DNA from: a virus
Virus record (IMG/VR): IMGVR_UViG_3300035070_002905
Coordinates: 96,001-160,000 of that record
Strand: one strand, 5' to 3'
Length of the DNA: 64,000 nt
Made by a program: the position numbers and the translations under genes. Below are positions 2,568-49,914 of this stretch, in pieces. Below the pieces are notes generated by a model. It saw only the letters and a program-made list of their open reading frames with translations. It was not told where the DNA came from and ran no database searches. Within the stretch, counting starts at the first letter, position 1, and each line of letters begins with the position of its first letter.

Positions 2568-2949
2568 AGCACAACTAGTGCAGATCCTAGATGGGTTTGC
2601 ACACGAGTGGATAGAGGAGCGTCTATACGAGCTCGCACGTATCCGTCACGGTAAATGTATCATCGGCATAGAGGATGTCTACTACGAAGCCGATCAGGCC
2701 TACGGACGTGCATACGAGGACGGCGGAGACTGTCATCCTACCGTAGCCTGGGTGAATGCAGGGGTAGACGAACTGCTCAGCTCAGAGGCAGCCCACGAGT
2801 CCTGGATGGAGCAACAGCGCATCGAGGCAGAGAAGGAGCGTCAGCGTCAGGAGGGCCTGCGAGCTCTAGCGGCGCAGCGTACCGAAGAGCACGAACGTGA
2901 ACAACTACGCAAACTAAAGGCTAAGTATGAGACAACTACTAGTAAATAG
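2557..2949 (+). CDS. hypothetical protein with C-terminal coiled coil (tail resembles that of 2223-2567)
   Basis: ATG 2557 with AGGAG RBS; ends EREQLRKLKAKY. Confidence 0.7.
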   Translation: MPSRAQLVQILDGFAHEWIEERLYELARIRHGKCIIGIEDVYYEADQAYGRAYEDGGDCHPTVAWVNAGVDELLSSEAAHESWMEQQRIEAEKERQRQEGLRALAAQRTEEHEREQLRKLKAKYETTTSK

Positions 2950-3310
2950 CATCAAGTGCCCGGACGGCACCGTCCTGACCAGTCGACACGTCCACGACTT
3001 CCAGAGCCACACCCAGGAAGACGGCCGTGAGTATTTCGTAGACGGTGGCTGCCACTACCAACGTATCGGTTACTCTGATGAGGAGTACCTGGACTGCAGC
3101 CTGTACAGCGATGACCCTCACGAGGTGATCCGAAGCAAGTTCATCTGGACATCCTTCGGTCGCTCGGGTAAAGAGGAGCCTATTCACACTGCACTGGAAG
3201 ACATCGGACGTGCACACTTGAAGGCTCTGCTGAACTGGCCTACCAGTCAGACCATGCGTCAGGTCTTCCAGGCCGAGTGGCTATACCGTGGAGGCGAGAA
3301 GCTATGGTAA
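2927..3310 (+). CDS. conserved phage hypothetical protein (N-x-I-x-C...S-x-H-x-H-D-F...VDGG motif)
   Basis: NSIKCPDGTVLTSRHVHDF and FVDGG resemble a common small phage family. Confidence 0.65.
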   Translation: MRQLLVNSIKCPDGTVLTSRHVHDFQSHTQEDGREYFVDGGCHYQRIGYSDEEYLDCSLYSDDPHEVIRSKFIWTSFGRSGKEEPIHTALEDIGRAHLKALLNWPTSQTMRQVFQAEWLYRGGEKLW

Positions 3311-5695: not shown

Positions 5696-6882
5696 TGATT
5701 AATCCAAAGAAACACATCCTACCTGAAGCAATGCTGAAAAACTGTGAAGTATTCTACTCTGGCCACGGCGTGACCATCTACCAGGCAGGCGAGTGGCGCT
5801 TCGCCCGTTCTGAAGCGTACAACTACGACTACAACACGGTAGACGGCTTCTTCCGTCGCTGGGGTGCCACGCTAGACGAAGACCCTACCTTCGCACCACT
5901 TAACGAGATCCTCGACATCGAGGTGACCACCATTTGTAACGGTCCGGCTAACCGTCTGTGTTCCTTCTGTTACAAAAACAATAACCCTAACGGCTACAAC
6001 ATGCCACTGGCAGACTTCCAGGCGGTAATCGATAAGATGCCCTGGTTGACTCAGTGTGCACTAGGCGCCGATGCTCAGGGTACAACCAACCCCGACCTCA
6101 TCCCGATGATGCAGTACGCACGCAGTAAGGGTATCATCCCGAACCTGACGATCGCCGATGTAAGCGAGGAGGTTGCCGAGCAGCTAGCTTCAGTCGCCGG
6201 AGCTGTAGCTGTGTCTGTGTACCGACATGCAGGCTACGACGTCGCGTATGACTCTGTGAAGCGTCTAACCGACGCAGGCATGACTCAGGTCAACTTACAC
6301 TTCATGATCTCTCAGAGAACGTTAGAGGACGCCTATGAGGTATGTCGAGCCATTAAAGAAGATCCTCGTCTTGCTAATGTCAACGCCGTCGTATTTCTCA
6401 GCCTTAAACAGAAAGGCCGTGGACAGCGACACGAGTACGTTACTGAGACTGAATACAAGGAACTGGTGGATCACTGTCTGGCAGAAGGCATTCCCTTTGG
6501 CTTTGACAGCTGTTCTGCTCCTATATTTCTGGGCGCAGTTCGTGAGCATCCATCGTATGATCGTTTCCGCGAAATGGCAGAAGACTGTGAGTCAACCCTC
6601 TTCAGTTCATACATCAACGAACACGGACACTTCTTCCCTTGCTCCTTTACCGAGAAGTGGGTCGAAGGTGGATGGCTAGAAGGCATCGACGTGCTGGCTG
6701 CCGATGACTTCGTGACCGACGTATGGAATCACCAGCGTACCTGCGACTTTAAAGACGTCCTACGCGATAACACCGATGACCTTGGCTGTCGTCAGTGCCC
6801 GGCGTACGATGTGTGCGGTCGTCCGACTCGAGTGTACGATAGTGAAGTAGAAATTGTTGACTTGACTAGCTACAAGCGATAA
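5695..6882 (+). CDS. radical SAM protein with SPASM/twitch-like C-terminal domain
   Basis: DIEVTTICNGPANRLCSFCY (CX7CX2C variant of CX3CX2C); C-terminal C...YINEHGHFFPCSF...CRQCPAYDVC. Confidence 0.85.
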   Translation: MINPKKHILPEAMLKNCEVFYSGHGVTIYQAGEWRFARSEAYNYDYNTVDGFFRRWGATLDEDPTFAPLNEILDIEVTTICNGPANRLCSFCYKNNNPNGYNMPLADFQAVIDKMPWLTQCALGADAQGTTNPDLIPMMQYARSKGIIPNLTIADVSEEVAEQLASVAGAVAVSVYRHAGYDVAYDSVKRLTDAGMTQVNLHFMISQRTLEDAYEVCRAIKEDPRLANVNAVVFLSLKQKGRGQRHEYVTETEYKELVDHCLAEGIPFGFDSCSAPIFLGAVREHPSYDRFREMAEDCESTLFSSYINEHGHFFPCSFTEKWVEGGWLEGIDVLAADDFVTDVWNHQRTCDFKDVLRDNTDDLGCRQCPAYDVCGRPTRVYDSEVEIVDLTSYKR

Positions 6883-6906
6883 ACTCACCCGGTTCAAGGA
6901 GGAACC

Positions 6907-7467
6907 ATGGCTACACATGAAATAACCTATGATACTGCAGACAATGCCGCTCGAGCCCTCAACACTATGAAGTGGTATAACCGAGACGGTAAGTTCTCTC
7001 GGAAGGGTACTACTGCAATGTTCGACATGCCCGACTCGCGTCCACTGCACGATCACGTAAGTGGTCATCCTCATCATGCTCTACAGTTCTGCGAGTTCGT
7101 CTCCCGATGTCGGATTCCAGAACTAGAGCCAACTATCCTATGCGACCCTGGCATTGCAGCACGATATGCTAAGAGTATCCTGAAGTCTACCTGGCCGGAA
7201 GCAGAGGATAAGATCTTCTCTAGCATCCACGCTATTACCTACTACCTAGAGGTACCGGGCGTTGATATAGATAGATGTAAGGCTGCAGTCATAGCAGAGG
7301 TAAACAGAGGCAGTGAGAGTAGCTACTGGAATGCGTACAACTACTGGGCGATCATCAGTCGTATCAAACAGGCCTGGCCTGAGGTTGAACCTGTACTGAA
7401 GCTGAACCCGTCTATCTGGGCGCAGTACCAAAGGTTATTACCTACATGGAATTCAACAAATTCCTAA
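6907..7467 (+). CDS. hypothetical helical-repeat protein (two WPExE repeats)
   Basis: AAGGAGG RBS; ILKSTWPEAE and IKQAWPEVE repeats. Confidence 0.7.
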   Translation: MATHEITYDTADNAARALNTMKWYNRDGKFSRKGTTAMFDMPDSRPLHDHVSGHPHHALQFCEFVSRCRIPELEPTILCDPGIAARYAKSILKSTWPEAEDKIFSSIHAITYYLEVPGVDIDRCKAAVIAEVNRGSESSYWNAYNYWAIISRIKQAWPEVEPVLKLNPSIWAQYQRLLPTWNSTNS

Positions 7468-27454: not shown

Positions 27455-28306
27455 CTATACCAGACTCTCTAGTACCTGTAGCTCTCCTAGAGGTAGTGCC
27501 TCGATGGCGTCCTTCATTTGGTGGGCTTCTTTAAGTAGCTGGCCGATATCATCACCTAGTGCAGCGCCTGCAGCCTCTGCGACTTTGATTAAGCTCTCAG
27601 CCGGTACGCTCTTCTTGTGTAGCTTAATAGAGCATGCTGCCTGCTTAACCATGAAGCAATCTTTATAGAATGACGGGCCGAAATAGTTAGCCGACTTCTC
27701 TAGTCCGCGGATGGTATTGTAAATGGCACGGTTATCTTCTACGCTAAGCTTCTCGGGATCGGTAGATGCAACTACCTGAGCGATCTTAGTGAACTCATCC
27801 TCGCCGGTAATATCTGCACGATGCTTGAGTGCTTCTACTGCAGCGATCTTACTCATAGTACCTGCGCCCGCGAAGATCTTGATGATATCTGAATCGACCA
27901 TGCTAGAGTAGTTATCCACTAGACTCTCACACGCCGATGCGATCTTATCCATATCAGGTCGTACCTGGGCTAGCTGAGTATGAATGAACCCCTCTGCCTG
28001 TGCAACCTTATCGCCTAGCTCTTGGACGCCTGCCTGACGTACCTGAGCGGCTTTAATCATCTTGCTAGTCATATCGGCTACAACACCGCGTACTTCGTAT
28101 AGGTCTACTGCTTTATCAACTCGAGGGATTGCATCATAATCACCTGGACGGTGTGCGATCTTCTCAAGGTATGCCAGCTCTAGTGCGCTGACGATCGTGT
28201 GGTCTTTGCTGTCTGTCTCATAGTTACCTTCCAGTGCGGCCTGTTTGACCATCTCATTAACTTCTGGAAGAAGCTCTGCTACTTGACGAATAGTATGTAA
28301 AGGCAT
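27455..28306 (-). CDS. putative internal head protein rich in hydrophobic-x-K-x-A motifs
   Basis: MVKQAA, LEKIAH, MIKAAQ, MDKIAS, MSKIAA, FTKIAQ, LEKSAN, LIKVAE. Confidence 0.65.
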   Translation of the reverse strand: MPLHTIRQVAELLPEVNEMVKQAALEGNYETDSKDHTIVSALELAYLEKIAHRPGDYDAIPRVDKAVDLYEVRGVVADMTSKMIKAAQVRQAGVQELGDKVAQAEGFIHTQLAQVRPDMDKIASACESLVDNYSSMVDSDIIKIFAGAGTMSKIAAVEALKHRADITGEDEFTKIAQVVASTDPEKLSVEDNRAIYNTIRGLEKSANYFGPSFYKDCFMVKQAACSIKLHKKSVPAESLIKVAEAAGAALGDDIGQLLKEAHQMKDAIEALPLGELQVLESLV

Positions 28307-41526: not shown

Positions 41527-42501
41527 TTATAGGCGAGGACTGATTTGACCAAGCACGAATGCCTTCGTATTACCGATGCCAACACCTACTGCTTCGTAAG
41601 TCTTGAACGAGATCATATCTGCTTCAGACTTCAGGTATACAGTTGGCTCTTGTAGAGAGTAGAACTGACCGAAGTAAGCTTCAGGAGCGAATACTACTAC
41701 TAAATCACCTTTAGCTGCAGTTTGTTCTGCATCTGTTCCGGCGTCAAGCCAAGCTGTATTCAAGATATCAGACTTGTTAGAAGTTACGATTTCGAAACCG
41801 TAGAAACCTTCCATTGAACCTGTGTCGAAGTGACGAGAAGCCACTGCGTCACCTAGCTGAGTAGCTGGTTCACGTAGAATCGCAAGGTAAAGCTGATGAG
41901 ACATCAGGATCTTGCCAGGTTTTTGGAAGTCATCAACCATGAACTGTACTAGCTGCATAAGCTTGTCAGTAACAGTTACGCCAGTCAACTCAGTATCGTT
42001 GTAGTAACGACGACCAGACAAGCCACGAGTATCACTAAAGATCTGAGCTAGAGAAGTAATGAAGTTACTATCTTCTTGCTTCTGGATGTCTTTCACTGAG
42101 TTCTCTTGCAAGATGTGACGGATGTCAGTCTTGTAAGTAGCTAGCTCAAATTTAGACTTTTCGAATTCCGCAGATTCAATCTTGTGGAATGCTACTTGGT
42201 AACGTGAACCTTTGAAGTAACGAGTCTCAGACTTACCGTTCAATGCGATTGTAGCCGCTACTGAATCAGGTTCTTTCTCGATGATCACACGTGGTGTGTC
42301 GTCTAGGTCACGGTCAAGGTCACTTGCTGTAACCATTTGTGGAGTAAGGATCTTACGAGTAAATCCGTCTTCACGTAGTTTTTGTCGAACGAACGTAGAC
42401 ATTGCTGCGCCCGCTTCTTTCGTCATGCCCTGCTCAATCTTATCTAGGAAAGCGTTGTTCAGGAACTGAACGTTCAGTGTTTCAGTTGCATATTCAGACA
42501 T
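41527..42501 (-). CDS. major capsid protein
   Basis: 324 aa; high-expression codon bias; followed by a strong terminator; downstream of protease, scaffold and decoration genes; ends YEAVGVGIGNTKA. Confidence 0.8.
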   Translation of the reverse strand: MSEYATETLNVQFLNNAFLDKIEQGMTKEAGAAMSTFVRQKLREDGFTRKILTPQMVTASDLDRDLDDTPRVIIEKEPDSVAATIALNGKSETRYFKGSRYQVAFHKIESAEFEKSKFELATYKTDIRHILQENSVKDIQKQEDSNFITSLAQIFSDTRGLSGRRYYNDTELTGVTVTDKLMQLVQFMVDDFQKPGKILMSHQLYLAILREPATQLGDAVASRHFDTGSMEGFYGFEIVTSNKSDILNTAWLDAGTDAEQTAAKGDLVVVFAPEAYFGQFYSLQEPTVYLKSEADMISFKTYEAVGVGIGNTKAFVLGQISPRL

Positions 42502-42513
42502 TAGTCTCTCCTA

Positions 42514-43017
42514 TTACTTCAAGATGATTACACGAGTCGGTGCAGTAACACCAGTATCGTCAACAGCGTTGTTGTTAAGTTCTAGACAGTAAGCGCCTGG
42601 AACCGCATCAGTAACCGAACCTGAAATTGCACACCAGCAAGGGCGGTTTGTATTAGCATTGATGCCGATACCTACAGCAGCACCTGGAACTGGAGCAACG
42701 TCGTTAGTACCGCCAGAACCAATCTCAGTAGTCTCTAACACAGCATTACCGAATAGTACGATGTTAGGCCATACTTGACCGCCTGTACCAGTAGTCTGTG
42801 AAAGGAAGTCGGCAGCACCACGAACGACTACGCCGATAGTACTCGTATCATTAGCAGTAGCAGCTTCAATTACTCCGCCTGCAGCAGTTACTTTAACAAT
42901 ATTTCCGTTACCAAAAGTAGCAGAACCTGAACCGTAGTTCATCTCTGCAGTTGGTTCGGCCATAGGCCAGCCACGTAGGAAGTTCGCGGCATACTCAACA
43001 GTATTTAATCGAGCCAT
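42514..43017 (-). CDS. capsid decoration/stabilising protein
   Basis: Small Gly/Ala/Thr-rich beta protein directly upstream of the capsid gene. Confidence 0.65.
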   Translation of the reverse strand: MARLNTVEYAANFLRGWPMAEPTAEMNYGSGSATFGNGNIVKVTAAGGVIEAATANDTSTIGVVVRGAADFLSQTTGTGGQVWPNIVLFGNAVLETTEIGSGGTNDVAPVPGAAVGIGINANTNRPCWCAISGSVTDAVPGAYCLELNNNAVDDTGVTAPTRVIILK

Positions 43018-43031
43018 CTATTTGTCTCCAA

Positions 43032-43559
43032 TTATGATAGTAAGAATTCGGTAAAGCTATCAACACCCGTCGCTAGACGATCTGATGGCCCACCCATATT
43101 CATTGGCGTGTTATTGACTTGATAAGCTACTTTCTGCAGGGTAGAATCATCTAGCATGCTTAGAGCATTTAGATCCTCACCTGAAAACACGCCAGTGTCA
43201 GATAGTGCTTCAACCGAAGGCGCCTTAACTGCATCTTCTGCAGCCTTTTCCATATTGGAAAGATCGGCCTCTCTGTTATCTAGTTTAACCTCTAAATCAG
43301 CAATATAACCAGCAGTCTTCTCAAAGATTGTCGCGAAGTGCTTAAGTTCCTTTGCTTTCTCGAGGTCTTGATCACGATTTGGATAAGCGCGCTCTGCTAA
43401 TTTCTCAAGAAGACCTTCGGCGTCTGCCTGGTCGACGCCCTGTGTAGACAGGGCCTCAACTGTACTCTTCTTAATGTCGCCCCAGGTATTCTCAAGGGCG
43501 GAAGCTTGCTTCTCCAGATTTCTAGCCTGCGTGAATAGCAGGTCTGTAATCTCGGACAT
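43032..43559 (-). CDS. prohead core/scaffold-like protein
   Basis: Acidic coiled coil; LEKQAS, LEKLAE, FEKTAG, MEKAAE, LQKVAY. Confidence 0.6.
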   Translation of the reverse strand: MSEITDLLFTQARNLEKQASALENTWGDIKKSTVEALSTQGVDQADAEGLLEKLAERAYPNRDQDLEKAKELKHFATIFEKTAGYIADLEVKLDNREADLSNMEKAAEDAVKAPSVEALSDTGVFSGEDLNALSMLDDSTLQKVAYQVNNTPMNMGGPSDRLATGVDSFTEFLLS

Positions 43560-43568
43560 GCTTACTCC

Positions 43569-44045
43569 TTATTTATTAGCAGCGCGTTCTTGCTTGCGGA
43601 GATCCTTGCGGATATCCTTATGCTGTTGCTTGGCGGATGCCTTACCGTGAGATGCACCTACTGCCGCGCCTGCCGCAAGACCATAAGTCTCTCGGTTACG
43701 CTTAACATGTGCGCCAGTCTTACCGGCTACGTCCTTTGCCTTACCGGCAAGTTTCTTAGCTTTCTTCTTGGCTTGCTGAGTACCTGCAGCTGCTAGCAAA
43801 GCTGTGTTCAGACCGGCAGTCTTATTCATCTTCGCGTCGCGAGTCTTCTTGGCTTGCTTCTGGGTCTTCTTCATCTCTTTAGAATCGCCAACTGCTACAC
43901 CAGCACCTAGGCCTAGAGCCATACCAGTACCGACTGCGCCTGCTGTACCACTTTGTGCACCTTCTTTAAAGGCCTTTACACCTTTACGAGTAGCTTTACC
44001 CGCCGAACCATCTTTGACTTTGCCGATGGCTTTCTTAGCCTTCAT
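43569..44045 (-). CDS. basic Lys/Ala-rich domain, probably expressed as a -1 frameshift extension of 44069-44812
   Basis: No clear RBS; reading frame is open back to the GGGAAAG heptamer at 44072-44078. Confidence 0.65.
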   Translation of the reverse strand: MKAKKAIGKVKDGSAGKATRKGVKAFKEGAQSGTAGAVGTGMALGLGAGVAVGDSKEMKKTQKQAKKTRDAKMNKTAGLNTALLAAAGTQQAKKKAKKLAGKAKDVAGKTGAHVKRNRETYGLAAGAAVGASHGKASAKQQHKDIRKDLRKQERAANK

Positions 44046-44068
44046 TCGCCCAAGACGTCCGACGGCTT

Positions 44069-44812
44069 TTACTTTCCCGCTAAAGCGGCTTCCTTCACTA
44101 GCTCAACTGCAGAGGCGAAATCCATGCCGTCTTCAGTCATAAGCTCTTGAACAGCAGCTGCTTTTTCTAAATCTGAATAATCTTCTGATTGATCGCATGC
44201 TTGCTTAACAAGCTCAACTGCGTCTTCAAAAGAGTGACCTTCTTCTAGCAAGATGCCTACAGCAGCAGCTTTCTCAAGCTCGTCGCCTTCAGACTCAAGC
44301 TCTTCAGAAGCTTGCTTAACTAGTGCGATAGCATCTTCGAAGTCAACACCGTCAGCCATTAGCTCGTCTAGAGCAGCTTTCTTATCGATGTCGGAAGGTT
44401 TAGCTGGTACGTTAGAAGGCTCATTACCTTCAGATGCCATTACGTCATCTTTGTGTTCGCCACCTGCAACGCCACGCTCTTGAAGTGCTTTAGCTACCTG
44501 AGTAACTGTTTTGCCTTCGCGAGGAGTCAGCTCATCACGAGCATCATCTGAAGCAACCATTGTATCGATTTCTGCGATAACTTTGTTTTCAGCAGCTTTC
44601 TCGTGACCATCAAGCATTGCTAGGATGCTGTTTGCGATTTCTTGACCTGTAGCCATAGTGTTTGTATCTCCCATATCTGATGCAGATTTTTCTAAAGTTT
44701 CTTTAAGTTCGTCAGCAGCAGAAGTTTCTGATGCTACCTTCTCGATCTCAGCCGAGCCGTCTTCAGCCTCAAGACTTTGAAGCAGGCTGTCTAGAGTAAA
44801 TTCGTTAGACAT
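44069..44812 (-). CDS. acidic scaffold/prohead core protein with three internal repeats
   Basis: KAA..EL...G.DF..A..LVK.A repeated three times; ATG 44812 has a GGAG RBS (ORF track start 44830). Confidence 0.7.
   Translation of the reverse strand: MSNEFTLDSLLQSLEAEDGSAEIEKVASETSAADELKETLEKSASDMGDTNTMATGQEIANSILAMLDGHEKAAENKVIAEIDTMVASDDARDELTPREGKTVTQVAKALQERGVAGGEHKDDVMASEGNEPSNVPAKPSDIDKKAALDELMADGVDFEDAIALVKQASEELESEGDELEKAAAVGILLEEGHSFEDAVELVKQACDQSEDYSDLEKAAAVQELMTEDGMDFASAVELVKEAALAGK
44072..44078 (-). promoter_or_regulatory. programmed -1 ribosomal frameshift site G GGA AAG
   Basis: Minus strand GCG GGA AAG TAA; the -1 frame reads GGG AAA GTA AAA GCC GTC GGA CGT CTT GGG CGA ATG into ORF 43569-44045. 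Confidence 0.75.
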
Positions 44813-46247
44813 TGTATTCTCCAAGTTCATTACGAATCGCTAGATCCATAAGTTTCATTGTCAGGGCCGATTGCTCGACTCCACTATTTGATTTTACCTC
44901 ACTGGCAGTCTTGTTCATCCCGCCTGCGATGGTACTAATCATTATTTTAGCGATTATCGCACCGCCAACCAGTTTTAGCAGCGTATTTGTGTTACCGGTA
45001 GTAGGCCTACTATTAGTTTGTGTGAGGTTTCGCGCGTATTCAGGACGAATATCTGCACCCCCACGGCCTTCCTGCCAGTTAAGCGCTGCTCGTTTCTCTA
45101 CGTAATCTCGCTGATAGCTAGATGTCTCCATATACTTATACAAGATGTTGATAAGCTTAGGATTCGGTAGAGTATCTTCCATATCAGGGATCAGTTCGTC
45201 GGCGTCAAGAGGGATACTCTCTACTCCGTTTTCCTGAAGTGCCTTCATGGCTAACATAGCGATCTCGCCTTCACGAGAGCCTACATACTTACTTGCTAAT
45301 ATTTTAACCAAAAACTCAACAGACGGATTAATTCCAAGGTGAGCAAGGGTAGAAATGATATCCGTAAGAGGGTACGGCTTGAGTACATCTACTACATCCA
45401 TATCGGGATCGCGAACCTTCTCTAGGATCTGTAATAGACTTCCACTAGCCTCTACCTCGCCAGGAATTTCCTTAACGATATCAGCAGCTTTAGCTAAAGC
45501 GGCCTTCTTAATGCTAGCTCGTTTCTCTGTACCGTAGGATACGCCTTCTGCGTCCGCAGCCTCTGCCGAACCGATAGTAACCTCGTCACCTGCAACTTTC
45601 TGGAGTACAGAACTAGTTACATCTGCGGGACGAATTACGATCGAAATGTCAAAGAATTTTAGCGGACCGACGTTGATCGCCATTACGCGACGGCCGTCAG
45701 GCATAATCTTATTGAGTTGGGTAGTAAGATGCGAACAGTATTCTGCACGGCTATGCGCCTTATTATTACAGATACTACATACATCGTACGGGGTGTTACA
45801 CGCCATAGACGTCATAGGGAATTGGCCATCTTCGATAGCTGCAAGTTCCATAGCTCCCAGCTGCTTATCGACTTCGGCTACTAATTCTACTCGGTGCATA
45901 CGTGGATTGTAGTACGAGTAGATTACCTTACCGATCGCTCGAGCGGGATCTTTATTGACGTGATGACGGAATACATGAGCGGGACTAGTCTCGAAAGTCT
46001 TGTACCACTGTAGCAGGTTATCCTCAGGGAAGTAGTCCCCGTTACGGTTAGAGCCGTAGTATTCGCCTGCACCCATAGCGTTGATGTGTAAGTAGAACTT
46101 GCCTTCTTCGGGAGTAATCTCCCCGACAAACTCCGTGACCTCATCTGCGGCCGCGGCTTTCTCAAGTCCACTAGAAGGAGACTCTAGGTCTAGTAGAGTC
46201 ACCTCCCAATCTTCAGAGAAGGACACAGCATCAATTAGCTTGTCCAT
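44805..46247 (-). CDS. prohead maturation protease (with Zn-finger insertion)
   Basis: NRNGDYF, HVFRHH, TSMAC...CSIC...YCSH, FFDISIVIRPAD resemble HK97/assemblin-type phage proteases; upstream of scaffold and capsid. Confidence 0.7.
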   Translation of the reverse strand: MDKLIDAVSFSEDWEVTLLDLESPSSGLEKAAAADEVTEFVGEITPEEGKFYLHINAMGAGEYYGSNRNGDYFPEDNLLQWYKTFETSPAHVFRHHVNKDPARAIGKVIYSYYNPRMHRVELVAEVDKQLGAMELAAIEDGQFPMTSMACNTPYDVCSICNNKAHSRAEYCSHLTTQLNKIMPDGRRVMAINVGPLKFFDISIVIRPADVTSSVLQKVAGDEVTIGSAEAADAEGVSYGTEKRASIKKAALAKAADIVKEIPGEVEASGSLLQILEKVRDPDMDVVDVLKPYPLTDIISTLAHLGINPSVEFLVKILASKYVGSREGEIAMLAMKALQENGVESIPLDADELIPDMEDTLPNPKLINILYKYMETSSYQRDYVEKRAALNWQEGRGGADIRPEYARNLTQTNSRPTTGNTNTLLKLVGGAIIAKIMISTIAGGMNKTASEVKSNSGVEQSALTMKLMDLAIRNELGEYNV

Positions 46248-46255
46248 ATAGACTC

Positions 46256-46780
46256 CTATCGAGCCTGCTTGGCTAGCTTCTCTTCAAGTTCAGTTACTGC
46301 GCGAACAGTCTGAAGGTCTAGGCTCTCGCCGTGCACTGCGTTAGTCAGTACGTTAGCAAGTACGTTAGCATCGCCTGCTACTGTAGGAGCGAACGCGAAG
46401 ATAGAATCTCCAAGACGCTTAGCTTTCATCGGGTTATCTGCAAGGATCTCAGACATCTTAATAGCCTGTTGAAGTGCCGCTTGATAGCGTTGCTTCTGAC
46501 CAGATGCGCCCATAGAACCTACAGCTTTACTGAATGCCATTGCGCCTAGAGTACCCAGTGCAGTAGCGCCCATACCTAGAGCTGCCTTACCTACATTCTC
46601 GCCACCGAAAGCGCCTGCAAAGTCAGAACCCCAAGCAGCTTCCTTATCCATACCAGTAGTAAGCATCAGGCGTTCAAGTTCCTCTGCAGTCTTCTCGACT
46701 AGCTCTGCCTTATCGTACTCGCATGCCACTTTCTCAAGGCCTTCTGTTAGAGCCTCTTTAAATTCTTGAATTACGTCCAT
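46256..46780 (-). CDS. putative internal head/ejection protein
   Basis: LEKVAC, VEKTAE, MDKEAA followed by a Gly/Ala hydrophobic stretch; ATG 46780 has a GAGGA RBS (ORF track start 46810). Confidence 0.6.
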   Translation of the reverse strand: MDVIQEFKEALTEGLEKVACEYDKAELVEKTAEELERLMLTTGMDKEAAWGSDFAGAFGGENVGKAALGMGATALGTLGAMAFSKAVGSMGASGQKQRYQAALQQAIKMSEILADNPMKAKRLGDSIFAFAPTVAGDANVLANVLTNAVHGESLDLQTVRAVTELEEKLAKQAR

Positions 46781-46781
46781 A

Positions 46782-47786
46782 TTATCCTCGTAGAGATTTC
46801 CAAGCATCATGCTTGCGGTTAGTTTTACGCGATACTTCAGCAGCTGAATCCGCTACCGACCACGTATTGTATGCCTTCTTAGCCTTACTGGCTGCCGGGC
46901 TTTGCTTAGCTGCGGCTGCTCGTGACTTACCAGACTTAATGGTATTCTGAGCAGTTACTTTAGCTGCATTAAGGAATGGCGCCAGCGCCTCCTTGATGAA
47001 TCCCTCGGCTTGTACAACCTTAGGTTCCAGCTCTGACAGCTCAGCTTGTGCTGCCTTTACCATAGTAAGTGTTTCTGATAGATATTTTACGTCGCTCAGT
47101 GCACTATCGGTAAATACTGTACGGCTTTCCTGAGGTTTAGCAGGAGTGAACTCGTTACGAATACTTGCAGCTTTCTCTAGTCCCATAGGAACATCGAGGA
47201 TATCACCGTCGAAATGCTGAGACTTAATACCGTCAGGGTAGATCAGTTTGCATAGTTCATCGGCGTTATCAAAATGAGCAACCTTCTCTAGTACTTTAGG
47301 ATCTCCGAATACTACATCACGTGCAGCGGCTAGCTTGCATAGGTTGTCATGGCTAGCTTCCTTCAGATGATCTACTCGACGACGGCCGTGTTCTGACTGA
47401 CGCTTAAGCATCTTGATCTTATCTGTACGGCCCCACTTCTCGAGGTCTGCCTCTTTCTCAGTGGCTACCTTCTCCATAGGCTCGGCGAAGATGTCTGTGA
47501 TGCTAGAGAGAACGTCGGGAGTATCCTGTACGCTCGCCTGCTTGGTAAACATACCAGACATTACATCATCGTATTTAGCTACGTCAAACTCAAAGGTACG
47601 ATCAGCCGACTTCTCTAGTTGAGAAAGGTAGGCGACTTGGTTAGTCGCCTCCACTAGTCGTTGAATCTGATCGGGGTTGAGTTCGTTATCCATAGCCTGC
47701 TTAGTAATGGCTCCCGTTAAGTTACCATCCTGAGCATCGACGACACAGCGTGCCGCCATCGTTTTTAAGGCTTCTGGTGTGAACAT
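46782..47786 (-). CDS. putative internal head protein
   Basis: About nine hydrophobic-x-K-x-A motifs. Confidence 0.6.
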   Translation of the reverse strand: MFTPEALKTMAARCVVDAQDGNLTGAITKQAMDNELNPDQIQRLVEATNQVAYLSQLEKSADRTFEFDVAKYDDVMSGMFTKQASVQDTPDVLSSITDIFAEPMEKVATEKEADLEKWGRTDKIKMLKRQSEHGRRRVDHLKEASHDNLCKLAAARDVVFGDPKVLEKVAHFDNADELCKLIYPDGIKSQHFDGDILDVPMGLEKAASIRNEFTPAKPQESRTVFTDSALSDVKYLSETLTMVKAAQAELSELEPKVVQAEGFIKEALAPFLNAAKVTAQNTIKSGKSRAAAAKQSPAASKAKKAYNTWSVADSAAEVSRKTNRKHDAWKSLRG

Positions 47787-47787
47787 A

Positions 47788-49914
47788 TTATCCCTCGTGT
47801 GCGATTAAGTTTTGCAGCTCTACGTAGTTCTCTCCGAGATTACGGAAGGTGTTACGAGTAGCTGTCATCAGTGAGTTAAGTGCATCGGCATCGATCTGCT
47901 CTGCCAGCTTAGCACTGTTAAGGCGCATAAGGAACAGTGAACGTCCCAGCTTGTCGATTGCATCCTTGATATCAGGTAGATACTCTTGGATTGCTCCGTG
48001 CATATCCGGGTTATGGAGCATCTCGGTAATCAGAGTAGCCTCCATAGCCTGACGGTCAGCCGAAGCTGCAGCATTCTCTACCTTACCTGGCATGCCCTCG
48101 TTACGTTGGCGTGCGGTACCGGTAATCTGCTTATCATTAGGAAGTTTCTCACCGTACTCAACCATAGGAGAGCGCATTGTAGCACCGCCACCAGTGGAAG
48201 GACGACCGCCGCCTCGAGCTGCCTCTTTATTCATACCGAAGAACGCGTCCATCTCCTTAGCGGCTGCATCTTTCAGCATACCTACTGCGCGATCTTCTGC
48301 GGTACCCGTCAGCTGCTCGGTCTGACCCTTCCCGCGGACTGCGGTATGAGTAGCTCCTAGAGCTGAAGCGGATGTAGGTGCAGGGATGTTTCCGTAACGT
48401 GGGAATGGCGCCGGTTTAGCGTTACGAGAATCCTGACCACCTGAACCGGTACGTGCGTTGGCTTGCTTGCTCATACGGATATTAACCGTACCCTGCTCTT
48501 CAGCCTTCTTAACGAAAGTCTCAACGGTCGGTACGTCCATCGACCAGGTTACCAGGCCGTGTGTGATCATCTGAGGTTTACCGCCTACTACCTGACCGTC
48601 TACTGCATATTGACCATCACGGTGCTGTAGAGTAGATGCGTAAGGGAGTGCGCGTGCCTCGTTGATCTCATGGATCATCTGTGCCTTATTGATATCAGTC
48701 ATGATTTCAACAGGTGCTTCAGATAGTGGAACGAATGTAGCATCCTCTGGAATAAGGTGCATACCTTTAGACTTGCAGTAGCGCTTGATAGATGGATGAG
48801 TCTTGAAGTAAGTACAACCACCATCGCCTAGTACCTTGAAGCAAGTCCAATCGCCTTCTTTGTATACTTCAGCCACTGTACCGGCCTCTGCATATCCTTC
48901 AGGAGTAGCGAACATACCATAGTCTTTCTGCTTGACGGCTACTAGAGCCTTGGCGCCAAGCTCTTCGAGTGCCGATTCATAGCTGACCGGACGCTCGTAT
49001 ACTACAGGCTTCTGCTTACACGTCATGCTAACCATCTGGCCTTTAGTAGTAACTACCAGAGGACCTTCGCCGATAGGAGCATTCGTACCGCGACCCAGTC
49101 GCTTATTAAGTAGAAGGGCATCGCCGTCCTGATTAGACTCAAGACGCTTAAGACATACCACGCTGATATCTTGTCCGGCCATAGTAAGACCGTTGTAGGC
49201 CTCGCCAGGTTGCAGGGAGTTAGCCTGAACGAATGCGTCTACACCACCGGCTTCTACAGCTACGATGGTTGACTTAGGTGCGTTCTTAACGGTGTAGCCT
49301 TTACTTAGTACTTCCTGAACCTGCTCTTCGCTAAGTCCACCGGCCTGAGTGACAACCTCTGGCATTGGACCTACCGGTGCACGGTATTCAGGCTTCGGAC
49401 GATTAATCGCCTCGATTAGAACCTCTACATCCATTACTGGATTGATGTGGTTAGCGCACTTCTGAATCATCGCCGCCATACCTTCACGCAACTCGTTAGG
49501 AAGCTGAGCTGCAAGTTCATGTACACGGGACTCGCCTGCGTATACGTACTTACCAGTCTTAGGTGGAACGATGGCATCATATAGATCAGGATCTCGAGCC
49601 ACGTGGCCTGGAACCTTCTCGCCCTGACCGAGGAACGGGTCCTTCTCCATCAGCCATTCGACTGACTTCTTGGTTAGCGGGATGAATACCTTAGCTTCGG
49701 CGTCGAAGATCGACTCCATAGGCTGTACGGTATCACCCTTAGCAATAACAGGTACGTAGTAGTACTTGTTATTCATATCGATAATGAACATACCGATCTG
49801 AATGCCATTGTTTTCAGGCAACTCCTCGGTCATGTCCTTGAAAGCTGCGACGTAGCGTCCCAGTTCCGGGGCTTGACGTTGAAGCTGGTTCATCGCCTGC
49901 TTAGAATAGTCCAT
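47788..49914 (-). CDS. large putative internal head protein (708 aa)
   Basis: YSKQAM, FVKKAE, MSKQAN, MNKEAA; between RNAP and protease genes. Confidence 0.6.
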   Translation of the reverse strand: MDYSKQAMNQLQRQAPELGRYVAAFKDMTEELPENNGIQIGMFIIDMNNKYYYVPVIAKGDTVQPMESIFDAEAKVFIPLTKKSVEWLMEKDPFLGQGEKVPGHVARDPDLYDAIVPPKTGKYVYAGESRVHELAAQLPNELREGMAAMIQKCANHINPVMDVEVLIEAINRPKPEYRAPVGPMPEVVTQAGGLSEEQVQEVLSKGYTVKNAPKSTIVAVEAGGVDAFVQANSLQPGEAYNGLTMAGQDISVVCLKRLESNQDGDALLLNKRLGRGTNAPIGEGPLVVTTKGQMVSMTCKQKPVVYERPVSYESALEELGAKALVAVKQKDYGMFATPEGYAEAGTVAEVYKEGDWTCFKVLGDGGCTYFKTHPSIKRYCKSKGMHLIPEDATFVPLSEAPVEIMTDINKAQMIHEINEARALPYASTLQHRDGQYAVDGQVVGGKPQMITHGLVTWSMDVPTVETFVKKAEEQGTVNIRMSKQANARTGSGGQDSRNAKPAPFPRYGNIPAPTSASALGATHTAVRGKGQTEQLTGTAEDRAVGMLKDAAAKEMDAFFGMNKEAARGGGRPSTGGGATMRSPMVEYGEKLPNDKQITGTARQRNEGMPGKVENAAASADRQAMEATLITEMLHNPDMHGAIQEYLPDIKDAIDKLGRSLFLMRLNSAKLAEQIDADALNSLMTATRNTFRNLGENYVELQNLIAHEG

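Follow-up and report, generated by a model that had tools for sequence, protein, structure and literature searches.

In phages, programmed frameshifting is well established for tail chaperones as well as for certain proteins of the capsid and the tail tube. Could it also join two proteins of the prohead interior? The question is raised by a 64,000-nucleotide (nt) window, the whole stretch of DNA analysed here, from the 172,110-bp genome of a marine phage (IMGVR_UViG_3300035070_002905, positions 96,001-160,000). In its head module, a gene for an acidic, scaffold-like protein ends in the slippery heptamer G_GGA_AAG immediately before its stop codon, and a basic open reading frame (ORF) extends from there in the -1 frame. 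A sequence-only reading of the window had proposed as its central claim that a frameshift of the lambda G/GT type fuses the two. Here we report that the heptamer, the bridging peptide, a lineage without a nearby start codon, predicted hairpins, a weak ribosome-binding site (RBS) and relatives fused in frame all agree with this proposal. From these sequence comparisons, a programmed -1 frameshift of the tandem-slippage type, real and selected, probably fuses the acidic protein to the basic tail; we put the probability at roughly 0.7.

The slippery heptamer and the open -1 frame

Read on the minus strand, the junction is ...GCC GCT TTA GCG GGA AAG TAA AAG CCG TCG.... The acidic gene ends exactly as the sequence-only reading had it, GCG GGA AAG TAA, and the heptamer (44072-44078, minus strand) stands in zero-frame phase and encodes Gly-Lys in both frames. 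It is the same in the Vibrio phages D181, D69 and D148 and in the metagenomic lineage L003. The adjoining zero-frame stop, TAA (44069-44071, minus strand), would be bypassed by a -1 slip, an arrangement shared with a tail-chaperone-like candidate elsewhere in the genome. In the -1 frame the junction reads GGG AAA GTA AAA GCC GTC GGA CGT CTT GGG CGA ATG, that is GKVKAVGRLGRM, so that the slip leads through GKVKAVGRLGR into the basic ORF, as had been claimed. From the heptamer onwards (GKVKAVGRLGRMKAKK...) the frame is open down to 43569. The resulting -1 ORF (43569-44078, minus strand) encodes a basic Lys/Ala/Gly-rich tail and comprises 169 codons from the heptamer plus the stop. The predicted fusion would have 414 amino acids (aa; 247 + 167) and 43.2 kDa; the short acidic product has 26.2 kDa, an isoelectric point (pI) of 4.06 and a net charge of -42.

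GGGAAAG is indeed the slippery site of lambda G/GT (PMC3296357), and G_GGA_AAG is described as highly shift-prone in Escherichia coli in a 2016 review (PMC5009743). The genome holds four copies of GGGAAAG, and only the copy at 44078-44072 lies within a long ORF in the phase G_GGA_AAG. A single copy was observed in the window against 4.5 expected, a depletion that is insignificant taken alone. We also scanned the last 90 nt of 230 crude genes for an in-frame X_XXY_YYZ (Y = A or T). An in-frame heptamer touching the stop and followed by a long open -1 frame was found in two of the 230, the acidic gene and the tail-chaperone-like gene. In the codon usage of the genome, GGA accounts for 18% of Gly codons and GCG for 15% of Ala codons.

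Two further observations concern the site. GKVK occurs twice within 44012-44078 of the window, 18 codons apart, once at the junction and once in ...AIGKVKDGS. Since the second GKVK is the one that aligns with the D181 and L003 junctions, the window lineage may hold an 18-codon duplication or insertion, which may also be the source of the ATG at 44045. Ten phage tRNA genes are clustered outside the window (genome G000:C1 10950-12322), among them those for tRNA-Gly(UCC) and tRNA-Lys(UUU), which decode the GGA/GGG and AAG/AAA of the heptamer; this is suggestive only.

Conservation of the heptamer, the bridge and a predicted downstream hairpin

The closest public phages are D181, D69 and D148 (~187 kb), and Salmonella phage Arash is farther. 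Relatives were gathered by scans with the protease-like and acidic proteins of the head module, which yielded ~180 loci from IMG/VR and metagenomes. Heptamer conservation was compared as DNA in three lineages: the window, D181/D69/D148 and L003, the last of which also includes L083, L084, L159 and L160. The acidic proteins of these lineages are ~50% identical to that of the window. Conservation of heptamer and frame in related phages had been named in the sequence-only reading as a check on its proposal, and it was found in all three: G GGA AAG TAA AA is identical, and the -1 frame is open in each. The codon preceding GGA is GCG, GCG or CTG (Ala, Ala, Leu), with a constant final G, and the codons upstream of the heptamer vary synonymously (GTG/GTT, AAG/AAA, GCC/GCT, GCT/GCA/GCC). 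As a synonymous baseline, we took the sites under identical amino acids in four head genes of the three lineages, where 19% of fourfold sites and 44% of twofold sites were alike in all three. On this baseline, the probability that the three wobble bases of the heptamer were conserved by chance is ~0.016, before a slippery heptamer is even required.

The region between the stop and the Gly/Ala-rich part of the tail is informative as well. In L003, the first ATG, GTG or TTG of the -1 frame lies 72 nt past the stop, within the first Gly/Ala segment. The bridge peptide in the -1 frame is GKVKGALSKAK in L003 and GKVKSALSGAK in D181; the shared Leu is encoded by CTT versus TTG and the shared Ser by AGT versus TCT, which is a mark of selection at the peptide level. 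Between D69/D148 and D181, the -1 ORF differs by seven substitutions, six of them at third codon positions, and three of the seven lie upstream of the annotated ATG. In GenBank, the basic coding sequence of D181 (OZ196140; within L001 4367-4852) begins at this internal ATG and has 102 aa, and the records of D69 and D148 are alike. The pattern of substitutions among the isolates, together with the alignment with relatives, indicates that the D181 frame is coding for at least 53 codons further upstream, to the heptamer, and that the annotation truncates the gene.

For a possible stimulator of frameshifting, the RNA downstream of the heptamer alone was folded, with 200 dinucleotide shuffles as a control. 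In the window, a long irregular stem-loop is predicted at 43999-44067 (minus strand), which begins 4-6 nt after the heptamer and encloses ATG 44045. Its folding energy is -30.2 kcal/mol (z = -4.73), and none of the 200 shuffles was as stable. The D181 hairpin, with a 6-nt spacer, reaches -22.1 kcal/mol (z = -4.71, 0 of 200 shuffles), and that of L003 reaches -11.8 kcal/mol (z = -2.45, 3 of 200). Hairpins are thus predicted 3-6 nt past the heptamer in all three lineages; their sequences differ, and their position is the same.

A tail-chaperone-like site as internal control

The tail-chaperone-like candidate lies outside the window (L185 6801-7660; genome G000:C1 86800-87659, minus strand). Here a 174-aa gene (L185 7136-7660), located between the large terminase gene and a weak baseplate-hub match, ends A_AAT_TTT TAA and is followed by a 114-codon -1 ORF (6801-7118) and then by a 978-aa gene. 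Judged by this arrangement, the gene pair is a putative tail assembly chaperone in the G/GT layout, and the 978-aa gene has the size of a tape measure gene. The combination of A_AAT_TTY TAA with a -1 ORF of 114-122 codons is kept in five lineages, namely this genome, D181, Arash and two IMG/VR genomes. Because this conserved site has the same design of a heptamer followed by TAA, it serves as an internal positive control for the site in the scaffold-like gene. The acidic/basic pair is itself not placed as a tail chaperone: it lies between the protease-like and capsid genes, not before the tape measure gene.

Fused, separate and absent forms among relatives

Four arrangements of the locus were found among relatives: heptamer plus stop, separate genes, in-frame fusion, and absence of the basic gene. 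The search for homologues of the acidic protein gave 214 matches, of which the best 120 were inspected. Among these 120, ...GK is the exact C-terminus in 24 clusters of homologues at 45-60% identity, with a variable residue before Gly, and at least 24 other clusters carry an in-frame basic-Gly/Ala-basic tail of 40-130 aa. The junction of P0023 (367 aa) reads ...ELVKEAALGK-LKAAAGKAANSKAGK..., and a full-length homologue of the -1 ORF is joined there in frame at ...ALGK. In BLASTP, the tail of P0023 matched the -1 ORF of D181 with E = 0.001 and that of L003 with E = 4e-4; it matched the -1 ORF profile with an hhalign E of 1.4e-5 in an alignment that begins at the junction. An in-frame fusion is also seen as DNA in L161/L162 (a 309-aa gene). 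In L161, the acidic protein carries the first Gly/Ala segment as an in-frame extension, and another gene encodes a second basic Gly/Ala protein, a split that corresponds to the two halves parted by the motif MNKTAG in the window.

A profile search of genome contigs with the acidic-protein alignment found none, and the basic ORF had no tblastn match in the phage collection. A phmmer search with the -1 ORF against 1.84 billion representatives returned one true relative, and the profile search, swamped by low-complexity words, returned three matches.

We placed the forms on a tree built from the best 96 homologues by a quick maximum-likelihood search (rows P0097-P0120 omitted), with support from the Shimodaira-Hasegawa-like approximate likelihood ratio test (SH-aLRT) only and a careful search unfinished. 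On this tree the forms ending in GK-stop are intermixed with the fused ones, which on the well-supported branches alone requires at least four switches; the Arash-like proteins form one clade (support 97). In the 27-member clade that contains D181, four fused forms (P0003, P0007, P0026 and P0028) are without the junction Gly-Lys, and 20 short forms retain it. Gly-Lys is thus retained in the forms that would need a slip and lost from those that would not, which points to a constraint on the nucleotides and not on the protein.

Some variants of the locus should be mentioned. In P0025 and P0128, close variants of proteins ending in GK (from clusters with P0124 and P0006), the protein continues as GKQ... 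for 9-21 residues, apparently by a change of TAA to CAA, so that the stop adjoining the heptamer is not invariant within populations. In five distant loci (L172, L173, L175, L179 and L181), the acidic proteins have 480-640 aa with internal Gly/Ala-plus-basic segments. The genes that come next encode small basic glycine-rich proteins starting M-x-N-K-Y-L-x-K-(I/L)-A, reminiscent of an N-terminal capsid-targeting peptide. In Arash (L002 3196-4348), the annotated gp225 shares 71 nt with gp224, the basic homologue. In homologues of gp225 the protein begins with a later Met (MNTDLIRNRAG...), and the annotated start is therefore probably too far upstream. An unannotated 159-aa ORF of Arash (2696-3175), homologous to a 167-aa gene of the window, precedes the capsid gene.

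Independent initiation and other explanations

The strongest competing explanation is that a functional frameshift is absent, that the heptamer is simply a pair of Gly-Lys codons, and that the basic protein arises from initiation or reinitiation of its own, at ATG 44045 in the window, at TTG in D181 and at the internal ATG in L003. The in-frame ATG of the window (44043-44045, minus strand) lies 23 nt past the stop and would offer a second route of expression. Its best anti-Shine-Dalgarno duplex reaches -3.6 kcal/mol, the second-weakest of eleven local starts; nine of the ten neighbouring starts range from -5.7 to -8.8 kcal/mol, and the tenth, at 46810, has +0.6. The absence of a clear RBS, pointed out in the sequence-only reading, is borne out by these values. 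Besides its weak Shine-Dalgarno sequence, the ATG would be buried in the predicted -30 kcal/mol hairpin, which argues against this explanation.

Several observations weigh against the frameshift. The nearest relative, P0130 (68% identity), has retained ATG 44045 as Met, and two D181-like lineages (P0132 and P0133) have a start-capable TTG or Met codon at the same place, 9 nt past the stop. With start-capable codons near the stop both in the window and in these lineages, termination-reinitiation could supply the basic protein. In the Arash-like relatives, the acidic gene ends GGC GAG TAA, followed by a GC-rich hairpin, a separate GAGG RBS and an ATG, and the basic ORF is in frame 0, +1 or -1 depending on the genome, so that it must be initiated independently there. 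The basic homologue gp224 was moreover detected on its own in Arash particle preparations (PMC10585845). Lineage L004 is without the basic gene altogether, and together with the separate genes of the Arash-like phages this means that covalent fusion is not obligatory for function. Finally, the role of the acidic protein as a scaffold or prohead core is itself suggested by position, composition and motif.

Initiation of the basic protein on its own is nevertheless unlikely to be the whole account. L003 has no start for 72 nt although the peptide encoded there is kept, with different codons for Leu and Ser. The wobble bases of the heptamer are kept against a near-saturated synonymous background, and Gly-Lys is lost in in-frame fusions and kept in the 24 forms with a stop. 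Reinitiation may instead add free basic protein beside the fusion.

A second possibility is that slippage does occur, from the intrinsically shifty GGGAAAG, and that the fusion is an unselected by-product beside a functional, independently initiated basic protein. It is in line with the shift-prone behaviour of the heptamer in any context in E. coli, as stated in the same review (PMC5009743), and with the relatives that have separate genes or lack the basic gene, in which the fusion is dispensable. We regard it as very improbable, because in-phase slippery heptamers are otherwise rare in this genome, an unselected heptamer would not last across lineages with saturated synonymous sites, and in-frame fusions have evolved repeatedly, an argument for the usefulness of the joined protein. 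A third notion, prompted by the in-frame fusions among relatives, is that an indel from assembly or sequencing divides what is a single fused gene. It is close to untenable, since the same stop and frame recur in the isolates D181, D69 and D148, in the independent metagenome assemblies L003, L083, L084 and L160 and in the window genome, and 24 protein clusters end in GK.

Three other candidates were considered and rejected. The heptamer is no Shine-Dalgarno sequence for a downstream start (spacing of at least 14 nt, weak duplex), transcriptional slippage would call for a long homopolymer, which is absent at the site, and stop-codon readthrough would require the basic ORF to be in frame 0, whereas it is in the -1 frame.

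The head module, its shared motif and the basic tail

The head-module genes of this part of the window are all on the minus strand. They encode, in order, a 708-aa structural protein, proteins of 334 aa and 184 aa, the 480-aa protease-like protein, the 247-aa acidic protein and the basic ORF (to 43569), followed by a 175-aa acidic protein, the 167-aa protein and the major capsid protein. The protease-like gene (44805-46247, minus strand) has a weak match to the head maturation protease family phrog_18299 (E = 1.3e-7). The major capsid protein gene (41527-42501, minus strand) belongs to the HK97 fold family, and its product carries the motif MTKEAG at residue 26.

The acidic gene (44069-44812, minus strand; 247 aa) has an RBS of the GGAG type, and its start agrees with the N-termini of homologues. 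Its product contains three helical-hairpin repeats, each ending ...LVK(E/Q)A. The gene has the position expected of a scaffold, between the protease-like and capsid genes, and the protein is helical by model: the AlphaFold model of P0023 is confident over the helical repeats only, with a predicted local distance difference test score (pLDDT) of ~90. A Foldseek search of this model against PDB gave no match at E <= 0.001. The acidic protein had no PHROG or Pfam family above threshold and no PDB sequence match in a profile search. From position, composition and motif, it may be a scaffold or prohead core protein.

The motif, [LIMFV][EDNT]K.A[ASG], has 17 matches genome-wide, against 3.4 in within-protein shuffles. 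All but one of these (16 of 17) fall in genes within 41527-49914 (minus strand), and the remaining one is in 27455-28306. Residue 26 of the capsid protein is one of the sites, the acidic protein has five of them, and the protease-like protein has three, including both of its ends. It is plausible, from this distribution, that the hydrophobic-x-K-x-A motif is a cutting or recognition site of the prohead protease. As such a site, it would make the acidic protein a core protein chopped at maturation, and the tail a substrate inside the prohead.

The tail alone has a pI of 10.9, a net charge of +32 and 35% Gly+Ala. Its conserved architecture runs from a basic N-terminal stretch through Gly/Ala segment 1 and M-x-K-(T/S)-A to another basic stretch, which is followed by Gly/Ala segment 2 and a basic end. 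Gly/Ala hydrophobic segment 1, GTAGAVGTGMALGLGAGVAVG (43887-43949, minus strand), has a Kyte-Doolittle value of 1.54 over 17 residues and can be aligned with D181, L003 and the in-frame tail of P0023. Gly/Ala segment 2 is YGLAAGAAVGASHG (43644-43685, minus strand). Between them lies MNKTAG (43812-43829, minus strand), a copy of the head-module motif; as a putative site of the prohead protease, it would divide the tail in two. The MNKTA noticed in the sequence-only reading is thus part of a motif found almost exclusively in head-module proteins, in keeping with a tail that enters the prohead.

The basic protein had no PHROG or Pfam family above threshold, the tail had no PDB profile match, and ESM Atlas gave no match above 0.8. 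In particle preparations of Arash, 283 spectra were assigned to gp223, the acidic homologue, and 222 to gp224, in a list of 116 proteins that is not stringent (PMC10585845).

Discussion

We propose the following mechanism for a programmed frameshift at this locus. Ribosomes translating the acidic gene would meet G_GGA_AAG with TAA next to it and a stable hairpin a few bases ahead. The majority would terminate and release the 26-kDa acidic protein. A fraction, presumably a minority, would slip back by one base, as tRNA-Gly exchanges GGA for GGG, and tRNA-Lys exchanges AAG for AAA. The shifted ribosomes would add 167 codons, giving a 43-kDa protein with an acidic helical-repeat body and a basic tail with two Gly/Ala segments. 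The acidic body would then carry the tail into the prohead core, where the prohead protease may cut the hydrophobic-x-K-x-A motifs, five in the body and MNKTAG in the tail. The freed basic fragments might stay with the DNA or act at ejection, and the tail may bind DNA or membranes.

What the frameshift is for can be proposed only tentatively. It may be a dosing device, by which a set fraction of the scaffold is made as a covalent scaffold-cargo fusion and a basic, glycine-zipper-like cargo is freed at MNKTAG. With the same reserve, the lineage would have switched repeatedly among in-frame fusion, frameshift and separate genes as links of the same two parts. If the frameshift is real, the site sets the ratio of plain scaffold to basic-tailed scaffold, and recoding would be tied to the loading of capsid cargo in barely studied phages of 170-190 kb that probably package their own RNA polymerase. 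Engineered encapsulation by scaffold fusion would have its counterpart in nature in such a dosing device. The public annotation of the Vibrio phages D181, D69 and D148, in which the downstream gene is now called from an internal ATG, would be corrected; these are named isolate genome records, so that the prediction should be directly testable.

The site closely resembles lambda G/GT (Levin, Hendrix, Casjens 1993; PMC3296357). The heptamer GGGAAAG is identical and encodes Gly-Lys in both frames, a nearby downstream zero-frame stop is bypassed in favour of a long -1 extension, and tRNA-Lys(UUU) reads AAG and then AAA. In lambda, ribosomes stay in the zero frame ~96% of the time, at a rate tuned by the modification of tRNA-Lys(UUU) (PMC3296357). 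On the other hand, the gene here is in the head module and not between the tail tube and the tape measure genes, and the genome possesses a separate G/GT-like site elsewhere (A_AAT_TTT). A strong hairpin is also predicted downstream of the heptamer, and the product would join an acidic polypeptide to a basic one. The literature searched gave no report of frameshifting in the gene of a scaffold or core protein; in the 2016 review (PMC5009743), the word 'scaffold' does not occur in the first 300,000 of 449,034 characters.

Relatives provide the same two parts in other forms. In Arash (OQ632216; PMC10585845), gp223 and gp224 are homologous acidic and basic genes in the same order, and both products were detected in particle preparations. 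They differ in being without the heptamer and in having an intergenic hairpin, a GAGG RBS and an ATG, with a variable frame relation. The in-frame fused relatives (P0023; L161/L162; P0003, P0007, P0026 and P0028; and a clade of 18 clusters) likewise have an acidic body followed by a basic-Gly/Ala-basic tail. In contrast to the window, they have neither stop nor frameshift, so that every molecule is tailed; most of their tails are shorter (40-100 aa), and L161 retains a second basic gene downstream.

The prohead core of T4 contains the acidic helical scaffold gp22, the internal proteins IPI-III and the protease gp21, and gp22 is cut at maturation. The internal proteins of T4 are encoded by separate genes and have an N-terminal capsid-targeting sequence with cleavage after Glu. 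An acidic helical core protein rich in protease motifs and basic proteins that enter the prohead and are cleaved by its protease would be common to both systems, putatively so here. The differences are that no similarity of sequence or fold to the T4 proteins was found, that the motif here is hydrophobic-x-K-x-A and that targeting here would be achieved by translational fusion.

By analogy, the nearest functional counterparts are 3'-terminal -1 frameshifts of capsid genes, those of T7 10A/10B and of gp5A/5B in Lactobacillus phage A2. In these cases, cited in PMC5221750 and PMC5009743, a head gene is extended by a -1 slip beside the stop, and two products are made from each mRNA. In T7 and A2, the protein extended is that of the shell, whereas in the present phage a scaffold-like core protein would gain a basic Gly/Ala tail with a putative protease site.

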